13,547 nucleotides of DNA from Halothiobacillaceae bacterium. GTDB taxonomy: Bacteria; Pseudomonadota; Gammaproteobacteria; Halothiobacillales; Halothiobacillaceae. Position 1 is the first letter of the stretch; every line of letters starts with the position of its first letter. The notes under the pieces were generated by a model. That model saw only the letters and a program-made list of their open reading frames with translations. It searched no databases and was not told the DNA's origin. The stretch lies in contig JAQVHL010000059.1 of the NCBI GenBank assembly GCA_028696185.1, positions 1 to 13,547 of the forward strand. Reading direction: 5' to 3'. This document shows positions 4,527-10,249 of the stretch, in pieces. A program made the translations under genes and the position numbers.

Positions 4527-6140
4527 TTATACGCGCTCTTGGGGCGTCATTTCGTGAATGCGCTCAAAGCTCAGGCCGAAACGCGCCAGGTATTTGCGCA
4601 GCCGGTCGGCATCGTTGGGCTGGCGCTTGTTCTGACGTGAGACGGCGAACAGCTTACGTCCGGCCTCGGAAAGATGGCTGGCACGGCGGCAGGTGTCGAT
4701 GACGAAGTCGAGCTGGTGGCGGTCGAAGGGGTCGAGTGCATCGGCCTGTTCCCCCAACAGTTCCGCCACAAGGTCTCGCGCGGAGGGGGTATGCCAGGTC
4801 TGACGCAGGAGGGCTATTTCTTCTTCGACATCCGCTTCGTTGATGCGTCCGGCGTGGCTCAAGGTGGCCAGTCGGGTAACGGAAGCGCCCAGTTCGCGGA
4901 AGTTGCCGCTCCAGCGGGCCTCGCCGGAGGTGGCGAAGGCCAGGTAGCGGCGTCGTGCTTCCAGGTTGAAGCGGACCTGCTGCCCCTGTTCGCGGGCGTG
5001 GCGCTCCAGTTCGAAGTCGAGGTTGGGCTCGATGTCTTCCGGACGTTGGGCCAGGCCGGGCAGCTCGAAGGTCCACAGGTTGATGCGGGCGAACAGGTCT
5101 TCCCGGAAACGGCCTTCCGCCACCCATAGGCGCAGGTTGCGGTGGGTTCCGGCGATGAGCTGGAAGTCGCTTTCCACCTCGCGGTCCGCGCCGAAGGGGA
5201 AGAAGCGCTTTTCCTCAATGGCCTTGAGCAGCATGGCCTGTTCGTCCAGCCCGAGTTCGCCGATTTCGTCCAGGAACAACAAGCCGCCATCGGCGGCACG
5301 CAACAGGCCGGGGCGTTCGGTTTGGGCACCGGTGAAGGCGCCCCTGACGTGGCCGAACAGGCTGGACATGGCGGAATCGCCACGCAGGGTGGCGCAGTTG
5401 ACCTCGATGAACCGGCCGGTAAGGCGTTGCCTTTGGCGTTTGAGCTCGTACACCCGGCGGGCGAGGAAGGATTTGCCGGCGCCGGTCGGGCCGACCAGCA
5501 GCACGGGCGCCTTCGAGTGTCCGGCCACTTTTTCGATGCGCTCGATCATGCGGTTGAAACCGGCGTTGCGCGTGGCAATGCCGGACTTGAGCAGGGAGAC
5601 GTTGTCGCTATGTTCGCGCGCGAAGCGCCGGGCAATCTGGTCGTAGCGCGACAGGTCGAGGTCGATGATCGCATAGCGGCCGGCGCTGAACTTGGGTTCG
5701 ATGTCCTTTTTGCCCGGCGGCGAGGTTTGCAGGAGACGGGCGGGGAGGTAGCGCGCTTCGGCGAGCAGGAACCAGCAGATCTGTGCCACATGGGTGCCCG
5801 TGGTGATGTGGATCAGGTAGTCCTCCTTGTCCGTGTCGAAGGGGTAGTCACGCGCGAAATCGTGAAGCAGGGTATAGACCTCCTCGAAATCCCAGGGATC
5901 GCGCAGTTCCCTTTCCACCGAGAGCACCTGTGTCTCCGGGGAGACGGAGGCGATATCCAGACGGATGCGTTCGGCCAGCCCCCGGCTGCGTGCGTCGTGC
6001 AAAAGCTCCAGCCGGTGGACGATGAAATCCTCCTGCTGGCACAAGGCCACGCTGGGTCGCCATTTTTCCCAGCGCGCGCTGCCCTTGCCGGCGTAGTCGA
6101 GCTGTGTGCCGAGAAAGCCGATCACCACCGTGCGCTTCAT
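4527..6140 (-). CDS. rtcR: RtcR, a sigma54-dependent transcriptional activator of the rtc RNA-repair operon (N-terminal CARF sensor domain, AAA+ sigma54-interaction domain, C-terminal HTH)
   Basis: 537 aa, the same length class as E. coli RtcR. The N-terminus MKRTVVIGFLGTQLDYAGKG...WEKWRPSVALCQQ is the RtcR CARF region. The protein has Walker A GPTGAGKS, the GAFTGA sigma54-contact motif and a C-terminal HTH. It is divergent from rtcB/rtcA. The SD AGGA (revcomp 6147-6150) sits 9 nt before the ATG at 6138-6140. Confidence 0.9.
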   Translation of the reverse strand: MKRTVVIGFLGTQLDYAGKGSARWEKWRPSVALCQQEDFIVHRLELLHDARSRGLAERIRLDIASVSPETQVLSVERELRDPWDFEEVYTLLHDFARDYPFDTDKEDYLIHITTGTHVAQICWFLLAEARYLPARLLQTSPPGKKDIEPKFSAGRYAIIDLDLSRYDQIARRFAREHSDNVSLLKSGIATRNAGFNRMIERIEKVAGHSKAPVLLVGPTGAGKSFLARRVYELKRQRQRLTGRFIEVNCATLRGDSAMSSLFGHVRGAFTGAQTERPGLLRAADGGLLFLDEIGELGLDEQAMLLKAIEEKRFFPFGADREVESDFQLIAGTHRNLRLWVAEGRFREDLFARINLWTFELPGLAQRPEDIEPNLDFELERHAREQGQQVRFNLEARRRYLAFATSGEARWSGNFRELGASVTRLATLSHAGRINEADVEEEIALLRQTWHTPSARDLVAELLGEQADALDPFDRHQLDFVIDTCRRASHLSEAGRKLFAVSRQNKRQPNDADRLRKYLARFGLSFERIHEMTPQERV

Positions 6141-6156
6141 GTCTGCTTATCCTGAA

Positions 6157-6176
6157 AGATAAATATAGATAAATAA
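6157..6176. repeat. Tandem AT-rich 10-mer repeat (AGATAAATAT / AGATAAATAA) immediately upstream of the rtcR start
   Basis: Seen directly in the sequence. It lies within a 120-bp AT-rich island separating rtcR from the sigma54 promoter. Confidence 0.4.
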
Positions 6177-6240
6177 TTCTAGTCCATTTCCAGTCGCAGA
6201 GAGATCATCGTCCACACCTGATGCTTTTATACTTCTTTTA

Positions 6241-9171: not shown

Positions 9172-9190
9172 GAGCGCAAATGTGCGCTCT
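9171..9190 (+). other. Perfect 8-bp stem / 4-nt loop hairpin (AGAGCGCA-AATG-TGCGCTCT) between the rtcB stop and the rtcA start
   Basis: Seen in the sequence and overlapping the rtcB TAA. No U-tract follows, so it is more likely an intercistronic processing or stability element than a terminator. Confidence 0.35.
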
Positions 9191-9220
9191 ACCATGACAG
9201 GGGCTTCCTTGCAGGGGGGA

Positions 9221-10249
9221 ATGATGGAGCCGATCGAACTGGATGGTTCGCAGGGCGAGGGTGGCGGCCAGATCCTTCGCAGCGCGCTGAGCCTGTCGAT
9301 GATTACCGGTAAGCCGTTCGTGATCGAACGCATACGGGCGCGGCGTGCCCGGCCGGGCCTGTTGCGCCAGCATATTACCGCCGTGCTCGCGGCGGCGGAA
9401 ATCTCGCAGGCGCAGCTGAGCGGGGCCGAGCTGGGTTCCTCGACCCTGCGCTTTCAACCCGGTCCGGTACGCGGAGGAGAGTACCGCTTTGCCATCGGCT
9501 CGGCGGGCAGTTGCACGCTGGTGCTGCAAACCCTGCTGCCGGCGCTCTGGTTTGCGGATGCGCCCAGCCGGGTGTCGATCCGTGGGGGAACGCACAATCA
9601 GGCCGCGCCCACGGCGGATTTCCTGATCCACAGCTGGCTTCCGCTCATGCGGCGGATGGGGGTGCACGATACGCTGACCTTGCTCCGGCACGGCTTTTAT
9701 CCGGCCGGCGGGGGCGAGATCGAAGCCTGCATCGAGCCGGTCGGCGCCTTGCGTCCCCTCGTCCTGGATGCGCCGGGTGAGCTGGTCTCCATGCAGGCCC
9801 GCGTGCTTCTTGCCGGCGTTGCTGGTGACGTGGCGCGGCGTGAGCTGGGCCGTCTGCGTGAGCGTCTGGGGCCCCTGGAGGGGCGGATCGAGGCCCTGCC
9901 CGCCTGCGAGGGGCCGGGCAATGTCCTGAGCGTCGAGCGGACACATGCCGGGCTTTCCCTGCTGTTTACGGCCATCGGCACAAAGGGGGTGTCGGCGGAA
10001 AAGGTGGCCGATCAAGCAAGTGAGGCGGTTCTGCGCCATGCGCGCAGTGGCGCGGCGGTGGAGGAGTATCTGGCGGACCAGCTTGTCTTGCCGATGGCCT
10101 TGGCCGGCGGTGGTCGTTTCAGCACGTCCACGCTGTCCTCGCACCTGCGTACCCAGTGCGCGGTGATCGGGCGGTTTCTTGGGGTCGATTTCACGTTCAC
10201 CCCAATGCAGGGCGTCGTCGTAGTCGGCGTGGGTGAGTTGGCAGGATAA
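9221..10249 (+). CDS. rtcA: RtcA RNA 3'-terminal phosphate cyclase
   Basis: Strong collinearity with E. coli RtcA: IELDGSQGEGGGQILRSALSLSMITGKPF, RAKPGLLRQH-like, GGEYRFAIGSAGSCTLVLQTLLPALWFAD, LLRHGFYPAGGG, YLADQLVLPMALAGGG. The ATG at 9221 is chosen because it matches the homologue N-terminus. The in-frame ATG at 9194 and the listed ORF start at 9182 are possible alternatives. Confidence 0.9.
   Translation: MMEPIELDGSQGEGGGQILRSALSLSMITGKPFVIERIRARRARPGLLRQHITAVLAAAEISQAQLSGAELGSSTLRFQPGPVRGGEYRFAIGSAGSCTLVLQTLLPALWFADAPSRVSIRGGTHNQAAPTADFLIHSWLPLMRRMGVHDTLTLLRHGFYPAGGGEIEACIEPVGALRPLVLDAPGELVSMQARVLLAGVAGDVARRELGRLRERLGPLEGRIEALPACEGPGNVLSVERTHAGLSLLFTAIGTKGVSAEKVADQASEAVLRHARSGAAVEEYLADQLVLPMALAGGGRFSTSTLSSHLRTQCAVIGRFLGVDFTFTPMQGVVVVGVGELAG

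Follow-up and report, generated by a model that had tools for sequence, protein, structure and literature searches.

An SPFH/Band-7 gene and a structured leader RNA with tRNA-like modules in a complete Rtc RNA-repair locus

We examined an Rtc RNA-repair locus with an embedded gene for an SPFH/Band-7 protein in a 13,547-nt stretch of DNA (the window) from a Halothiobacillaceae bacterium (assembly GCA_028696185.1, contig JAQVHL010000059.1). Genes were called by scanning the eight largest open reading frames (ORFs) of the window against Pfam and NCBIfam. All four genes were present: rtcR lies on the minus strand, divergent from an IHF-consensus site and a sigma54 promoter, which are followed on the plus strand by a leader RNA, the SPFH gene, rtcB and rtcA (Table 1). 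RtcR matched the NCBIfam equivalog NF038308 (RNA_repair_RtcR) over its full length at 841 bits (cutoff 650), with PF06956 at residues 2-187 (1e-86) and PF00158, Sigma54_activat, at residues 190-357 (1e-48). The identity of RtcB and RtcA rests on profile scores and not on individual catalytic residues. An Rtc RNA-repair operon is recognised by the RtcR domain pair, by RtcB together with RtcA and by a sigma54 -24/-12 promoter, and all three were found; so were an SPFH gene adjoining rtcB and a tRNA-like non-coding RNA beside it, the two marks of the Band-7/b7a-tRNA subtype. Judged by its sequence, the locus is a complete RtcR/sigma54-type operon for the healing and sealing of RNA ends, a minimal form of the subtype 'Band-7 + band-7-associated tRNA'. 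A preliminary description of this DNA had called the locus complete, and each element that it listed was recovered at, or a few bases from, the place given. This category of system was already known and the present analysis does not change it.

The operon is compact, as had been claimed for the SPFH gene in particular. The SPFH gene has its own ribosome-binding site (AAGGAG, 6770-6775, 7 nt 5' of the ATG). Its stop codon (TGA, 7926-7928) is separated from rtcB by 19-25 nt, with two candidate rtcB start codons (ATG at 7948 and 7954), both behind GAGGAAG (7940-7946). A gap of 49 nt separates the rtcB stop (TAA, 9169-9171) from the rtcA start (ATG, 9221), which follows a G-run. From the leader to rtcA, the promoter scan gave no sigma70-like site. 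Terminator-like matches were not above the shuffled expectation, and none fell at the leader/SPFH or SPFH/rtcB junction. We infer that the leader, the SPFH gene, rtcB and rtcA are carried on a single transcript.

Both control elements that had been proposed for the spacer between rtcR and the SPFH gene were found. The IHF-consensus site occurred once in the window, where 0.07 matches were expected by chance, and its ATCAA and TT positions were conserved in an alignment of 65 upstream sequences, which is consistent with a role for IHF here. The sigma54 motif by itself was not significant in the window (15 matches at no more than two mismatches, compared with 18 expected); its weight comes from recurrence, since 68 of 81 homologous upstream regions carry GGCACG-N4-TCGC ahead of the SPFH gene. 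Transcription would start near 6308 if the distance from the -12 element is the customary one. A/T-rich conserved repeats (TTATCCTGAAAGATAAAT, then GATAAAT again) were noticed at 6147-6174, beside the rtcR start codon and 110-135 nt upstream of the -24 element. The repeats may serve RtcR as enhancers, or may simply belong to the rtcR ribosome-binding region.

Synteny was surveyed by scanning 185,579 species genomes. At least 565 SPFH loci were confirmed, and the best 80 were kept and the four window proteins mapped onto them; a HMMER search of the whole library gave 555 cluster representatives at E <= 1e-30. RtcR was encoded divergently upstream in 64 of the 69 loci with enough flanking sequence, at a median distance of 674 nt from the SPFH gene (609-770 nt in all but one locus). 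RtcB lay downstream of the SPFH gene in 61 of 71 loci, less than 150 nt away in 24 of these, and RtcA lay within 5 kb of it in 43 of 67. The order rtcR, promoter, leader, SPFH gene, rtcB was kept across Thiobacillus, Rhodocyclales, Gallionellaceae, Pseudomonas, Chitiniphilus and Xenorhabdus, with Xenorhabdus showing RtcR, Band_7, RtcB and RlaP without RtcA. The SPFH protein itself is tightly conserved at about 378-381 residues, being 62-76% identical across the best 80 loci and 67-76% identical among the matches listed; the window protein is identical to a 'slipin family protein' from a Halothiobacillaceae metagenome-assembled genome. Many relatives carry further genes: 40 of 80 have one for a treble-clef zinc-finger protein (zf_Tbcl, PF13451) placed between the SPFH gene and rtcB, 42 of 80 one for an RlaP nucleotidyltransferase (PF10127) and 8 of 80 one for a HEAT-repeat protein. 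None of the three is present in the window, which is why we describe its locus as minimal.

These data support the SPFH gene as a conserved component of the rtc locus and not a chance neighbour, as the preliminary description had argued. By nhmmer, 72 of 84 sequences have a tRNA-like module (module 2 in Table 1) where the window has it. To our knowledge the rtc operons of E. coli K-12 and Salmonella have no SPFH gene, which might suggest that the gene is a recent and unrelated insertion beside rtcB. The distribution of the Pseudomonas copy, described as markedly restricted and patchy among species in the available text of PMC13086221, would point the same way. Given a gene order shared by such varied lineages and the level of protein identity that goes with it, we regard an insertion as effectively refuted by the synteny and give it hardly any credence.

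The link between RtcB, a Band-7 protein and a tRNA-like RNA, part of whose novelty the preliminary description had itself qualified, is not new. [quoted passage not shown] In Pseudomonas aeruginosa, PA4582 and PA4584 appear as conserved unknowns of the rtc operon in the accessible part of PMC8619066, and the PA14 copy (PA14_60630) is named PaFlo8 and placed within the rtc locus in PMC13086221, again as far as the accessible text goes. The same gene set and order hold for PA4581-PA4585, where PA4582 is PaFlo8: a divergent rtcR, then the tRNA-like RNA, the Band-7 gene, rtcB and rtcA. The Pseudomonas loci that we fetched encode SPFH proteins 62-66% identical to that of the window and match it in promoter and leader architecture. 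The role of the Band-7 protein and the tRNA-like RNA in RtcB operons has been a standing question since 2016. What is added here is the prediction that the SPFH protein is soluble, the extent and covariation of the leader, with likely boundaries and about 100 base pairs, and a constraint that falls on the tRNA elbow and not on the anticodon. These additions make the question of function more testable.

Table 1. Features of the rtc locus in the window
Feature	Position	Strand	Basis or description
rtcR, 537 residues	4527-6140	-	CARF-type RtcR domain and sigma54-interacting AAA+ activator
IHF consensus site TATCAATGGCTTA	6241-6253	+	sole window match to WATCAANNNNTTR; 29 nt upstream of the -24 element
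sigma54 -24/-12 promoter TGGCACGCTCCTCGC	6282-6296	+	one mismatch to the motif
Leader RNA, conserved and structured, about 475 nt	about 6308-6782	+	alignment and covariation; putative ends
5' domain, hairpin H2	6333-6359	+	7 of 9 pairs changed on both sides
5' domain, hairpin H3	6360-6397	+	10 of 14 pairs changed on both sides
Near-invariant AUGCCGCC	6398-6405	+	3' of H3
tRNA-like module 1	6424-6470	+	T-arm and, stacked on it, an acceptor-like helix (6424-6429 with 6461-6466); a small internal hairpin; GCCA at the end
tRNA-like module 2	6473-6534	+	D-arm 6478-6493, anticodon-like arm 6495-6509, T-arm 6515-6531, short acceptor stem
Small hairpin	6539-6557	+	directly 3' of module 2; in the minimum-free-energy fold of the window; not called by RNAalifold
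3' domain, about 185 nt	6574-6757	+	covariation; fold of the window leader itself
3' domain, closing helix H10	6574-6579 with 6752-6757	+
3' domain, GNRA-capped hairpin H11/H12	6582-6602	+
3' domain, irregular helix H13/H14	6603-6645 with 6706-6748	+	about 35 pairs, variable tip
SPFH/Band-7 ('slipin family') gene, 381 residues	6783-7928	+	Pfam Band_7, PF01145, 8.9e-30, residues 150-321
rtcB, RNA ligase	7954-9171	+	PF01139, 8e-128, profile positions 1-426 of 426
Inverted repeat GAGCGCAaatGTGCGCTC	9172-9189	+	7-bp GC-rich arms (GAGCGCA aat GTGCGCTC); read from the sequence
rtcA, RNA 3'-terminal phosphate cyclase	9221-10249	+	NF003246, 427 bits (cutoff 352); Pfam RTC 2.8e-79, and RTC_insert

The spacer between rtcR and the SPFH gene is conserved in blocks along its entire length. 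An alignment was made of 30 non-redundant leaders, each reaching from the -24 element as far as the ATG, and RNAalifold called 103 pairs in it, 63 of them with compensatory changes. Four pairs that reached into untranscribed promoter bases were dropped, leaving 99 to be tested. Across these, 94.1% of cells were paired, compared with 35-45% when the 3' partners were slid by 1-3 columns. Double changes were found at 63 pairs (28-35 in the slid controls), the covariation score was 0.411 (0.06-0.09 in the slid controls), and none of 500 column shuffles attained the observed values. Folded alone, the window leader gave -249 kcal/mol (z = -4.6) and reproduced the 3' domain. We take the leader, from its covariation, to be a real structured RNA.

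An nhmmer profile of the 5' domain matched 74 of the 84 sequences, Pseudomonas included. A CTGTC...GACAG hairpin was found at the place of the small hairpin behind module 2 in most relatives. In the 3' domain, compensatory changes were seen at 20 of the 22 pairs of H13 and at 10 of the 12 pairs of H14. The Pseudomonas leaders have the same layout, with the 3' domain included. No Rfam family was found for the leader beyond the generic tRNA match. The preliminary description had spoken of a tRNA-like RNA; the element is indeed present by ARAGORN and Rfam, though as one module of a larger conserved leader and not as the whole RNA.

Within module 1 the T-arm is canonical (6444-6460, GGGTTCGACTCCC) and the acceptor-like helix (helix 4, 6 bp) shows compensatory changes at five of its six pairs. 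Where the window has only this acceptor/T-arm minihelix, ARAGORN reported a complete second tRNA-like element in Pseudomonas, giving two tandem cloverleaves. We also noted that the module 1 minihelix is followed by GCCA (6467-6470) and that CCA occurs within a few bases of this place in about 19 of the 30 aligned leaders (by eye). It recalls an encoded tRNA 3' end, and the place might be one where RNase P or an exonuclease processes the RNA.

Module 2 was called by ARAGORN as tRNA-Val(GAC) at 6467-6540 and by the Rfam tRNA model at 39 bits (gathering score 29), the Rfam match covering model positions 5-66 only. Its D-stem is invariant in all 30 aligned leaders and its T-arm nearly so, the anticodon stem covaries at four of five pairs, and in the acceptor stem three pairs covary (4-5 by eye). 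The anticodon loop is unconstrained: ARAGORN assigned Val, Met, Ile, Asn, Thr or Lys in different loci, or no identity at all, and among 68 distinct modules the loop was 4 nt long in 31 and 7 nt in 20, the 4-nt loops including UUCG 15 times and GAAA four times. Because the D- and T-arms hardly vary while the anticodon loop does, the selected feature appears to be the tRNA elbow formed by the D-loop and T-loop, and not the anticodon, which argues against decoding and against bait for anticodon-loop nucleases.

Two known RNA types were considered for this element and rejected. As a genuine decoding tRNA, module 2 lacks a 7-bp acceptor stem, as the partial Rfam match also indicates, and conserves neither a 7-nt anticodon loop nor an anticodon identity. 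YrlA (Rfam RF02553) scored 29.3 bits against a gathering score of 69, and the hairpin-closed acceptor between T-arm and D-arm that marks its fold is not present; the sub-threshold match arises because the T-arm of module 1 sits just upstream of the D-arm of module 2.

The bait idea can be put more fully: the modules would be cut by anticodon nucleases, either sparing tRNAs or feeding cyclic-phosphate fragments to the CARF domain of RtcR as a sentinel. In the available text, RtcR is reported to be activated by damaged tRNAs (PMC7790460) and to respond to 5' tRNA halves with 2',3'-cyclic phosphate ends (PMC7790460, PMC10159003), and the loop 'identity' that changes from species to species could reflect an arms race. 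We nevertheless judge this quite unlikely, since with a tetraloop so often in place of the canonical 7 nt most modules have no normal anticodon loop to offer, and bait of this kind would be made only once the promoter had fired. The analogous YrlA, moreover, was not cleaved during induction of the operon in Salmonella according to the portion of PMC7790460 available.

We modelled the SPFH protein with AlphaFold2 (predicted local distance difference test, pLDDT, 83.8). The model has beta-rich modules at about residues 1-70 and 71-131, an SPFH domain at 146-292 and a long helix at 295-359; this order, with a long coiled-coil helix after the SPFH domain, is the arrangement of the stomatin-like branch. 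In a profile search of PDB sequences, residues 144-350 matched stomatin (E 2e-34), and HflK and QmcA also matched; HflK and prohibitin cages were among the structural relatives. The matching stomatin entries contain 16 stomatin chains, or up to 64 for one sequence. By analogy with these, the window protein may assemble into a large ring or cage. The SPFH domain and long helix are common to the cages of stomatin, HflK/C, prohibitin, QmcA and erlin; the window protein differs from them in having no anchor. We detected neither a transmembrane nor a re-entrant or hairpin segment, the best 19-residue Kyte-Doolittle mean being 1.09, and where stomatin and HflK carry their anchor the protein has about 143 N-terminal residues of soluble beta modules (pLDDT 82-90). 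A motif that opens the SPFH domain, GLL..DG.....L.PG.Y.FW, is present three times, and the N-terminus can be described, from the model, as a pair of degenerate SPFH1-like duplications in place of the membrane anchor. The protein is accordingly modelled as soluble, a prediction that leaves the membrane link suggested in the preliminary description unsupported.

That link has a definite form, in which the SPFH protein would act as HflK/C and stomatin do, as the scaffold of a microdomain or protease complex that tethers or organises RNA repair at the membrane. The SPFH domain and helix are clearly stomatin/HflK-like and all solved relatives among the matches are membrane-associated cages. The absence of an anchor and its replacement by soluble modules tell in the other direction, as does the lack of a partner gene: neither NfeD nor FtsH was found in the window, or in the related loci whose ORFs were scanned. 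On balance we hold a membrane role to be very unlikely.

The leader RNA and the SPFH gene were also found together away from the other genes. Five loci (L036, L038, L041, L044 and L051) carry the 5' RNA domain, module 2 and the SPFH gene without RtcR or RtcB in the fetched 5-kb flanks; three of the five (L036, L038, L044) also gave a match to the sigma54 motif. In L036 the pair stands among housekeeping genes. In L038, from an Accumulibacter genome bin, a TIR-domain/methyltransferase fusion (5911-7239, plus strand) takes the place of rtcB after the SPFH gene, which hints that the pair can partner other effectors. Because the RNA and the SPFH gene persist where Rtc genes are absent, gene neighbourhood ties the leader RNA more tightly to the SPFH protein than to the ligase. 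The SPFH gene can in turn occur apart from the rtc genes: Chitinimonas (L045) has the sigma54 motif, the SPFH gene and zf_Tbcl without Rtc genes, and distant cyanobacterial SPFH homologues showed no Rtc linkage. E. coli has an SPFH homologue, 56% identical, at a non-rtc locus (L084, CP061233.1, 611814-613738) between a DUF3811 gene and lysC, next to a gene with a nucleotidyltransferase domain and a gene of the zeta-toxin family (P-loop kinase-like); the earlier statement that the E. coli rtc operon has no SPFH gene is not contradicted by it. Of 5,426 complete genomes, 1,425 covered at least 80% of a 3.6-kb E. coli query with this homologue and its neighbours.

These loci bear on a simpler account, in which the leader is only a 5' untranslated region whose structures are RNase P or RNase E processing signals, mRNA stabilisers or translation controllers, with no function in trans and no protein partner. 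The leader does sit between the promoter and the first gene, its 3' domain closes about 25 nt 5' of the start codon and leaves an A-rich ribosome-binding site exposed, and module 1 is an 11-bp acceptor/T-arm stack followed by GCCA, which we take to resemble a minimal RNase P substrate. We think it unlikely all the same. About 100 covarying pairs together with invariant D- and T-loops exceed the needs of a processing or stability signal, the RNA stays with the SPFH gene where rtcB and rtcA are absent, and neither a terminator/anti-terminator alternative nor sequestration of the ribosome-binding site was found by the terminator scan and the leader fold.

We lean instead towards a reading in which a soluble SPFH oligomer and the leader RNA form a cofactor particle for RtcB and RtcA, comparable to Ro60 with Y RNA, within the RtcR/sigma54 operon. 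In Rtc systems generally, RNA damage yields tRNA fragments with 2',3'-cyclic phosphate ends, which activate RtcR through its CARF domain. IHF would then bend the DNA so that RtcR could open the sigma54 promoter, and one transcript would be made, with the structured leader ahead of the three genes. Like SPFH proteins of solved structure, the anchorless SPFH protein would assemble into a ring or cage, here a soluble one, and the leader RNA, whole or processed, would join this oligomer with its two tRNA elbows and its 5' and 3' helical domains. The resulting particle might act as a scaffold or cofactor that holds or presents broken tRNA-shaped RNAs for RtcA, which cyclises 3'-phosphates, and for RtcB. 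This last step is modelled on the Salmonella rsr-yrlBA-rtcBA operon, where Ro60 (Rsr) and the tRNA-like YrlA have been proposed to act in this way.

The comparison with Salmonella rests on several shared features. Both are RtcR/sigma54 operons with a protein that forms rings (inferred in our case) and a tRNA-elbow-mimic RNA before rtcB, and the D-loop and T-loop are conserved in YrlA and in the window leader alike; the effector-binding domain of YrlA folds like tRNA, as given in the consulted sections of 10.1101/312249. The two differ in that no TROVE/Rsr protein was found among the eight largest ORF products of the window, the RNA is a leader upstream of the protein gene here and lies between genes there, and the window modules do not have the circularly permuted fold of YrlA. 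With E. coli K-12 rtcR/rtcBA the locus shares the divergent RtcR, the sigma54 promoter and the core of RtcB ligase and RtcA cyclase. The eukaryotic vault, with its major vault protein (MVP), vault RNA and TROVE protein TEP1, is an analogy only, and the N-terminal MVP repeat domains that would mark vault membership were not found.

A more specific version of the proposal holds the leader to be a stand-alone multi-domain non-coding RNA that joins a membrane-free SPFH cage in a cytoplasmic ribonucleoprotein particle capturing broken tRNA-shaped RNAs for RtcA and RtcB; we put this forward as a tentative possibility, on the doubtful side. If it were true, bacteria would have in this particle a functional counterpart to those of Ro-Y RNA and the vault, and the SPFH protein would be the first with an RNA partner instead of a membrane or a protease. 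More broadly, a cofactor particle would give SPFH proteins a cytoplasmic RNA-scaffolding role and would make the Ro/Y-RNA and Band-7/tRNA-like systems interchangeable solutions in RNA repair. If there is no such particle, the locus is simply a well-conserved operon variant.

Several observations weigh against a particle of this kind. In two loci, the Chitinimonas one (L045) and L063, nhmmer detected none of the RNA blocks, and near the E. coli homologue no tRNA-like RNA was found by Rfam (E <= 0.01) or by the leader RNA profiles. Five Pseudomonas loci (L047, L048, L052, L054 and L080) have no detectable tRNA-like module while keeping the SPFH gene and the 5' domain. Deletion of paFlo8 gave no growth, virulence-factor, motility, biofilm or oxidative-stress phenotype in the part of PMC13086221 available. 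The oligomeric state of the SPFH protein is, in addition, carried over from its homologues. The membership of the SPFH gene in the operon is much firmer than the idea of a particle.

The five Pseudomonas loci belong to Pseudomonas donghuensis, P. brassicae, P. aegrilactucae, P. rubra and P. palmensis, which also keep rtcR and rtcB. They can be looked upon as natural 'deletion mutants' for the role of the tRNA-like part.

The inverted repeat between rtcB and rtcA begins directly 3' of the rtcB stop codon, has no T-run and was not called by the terminator scan; it may be a candidate element for mRNA processing or stability. The genes flanking the locus in the window are unrelated to it, and encode a U32-family protein, an Orn/Lys/Arg decarboxylase, an MT-A70 methyltransferase and an AI-2E transporter. 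The U32-family protein (654 residues, 2458-4422, minus strand, DUF3656) matched the NCBIfam models of the tRNA hydroxylase TrhP and of UbiU/UbiV below their cutoffs, and the MT-A70-family methyltransferase is fused to a helix-turn-helix domain (299-1165, minus strand); neither gene was linked to the rtc locus in relatives. Directly downstream of rtcA lie a YefM/Phd antitoxin gene (10386-10643, plus strand; PF02604, 6e-21) and an ORF (10564-10908, plus strand) for YoeB, an RNA-cleaving toxin, with a PF06769 match (1e-39) over ORF residues 35-114. The pair looks like a local insertion, because it is absent from all 80 related loci.

We also noted an in-frame ORF of 481 residues with a GTG start (6483-7928, plus strand), which in this GC-rich DNA begins within the tRNA-like element and extends into the SPFH gene. 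Database entries of 475-525 residues for SPFH proteins from close relatives may in some cases have start codons over-extended through the RNA leader in the same way. Genuinely longer forms seem to exist as well, for example one of 523 residues in Xenorhabdus.

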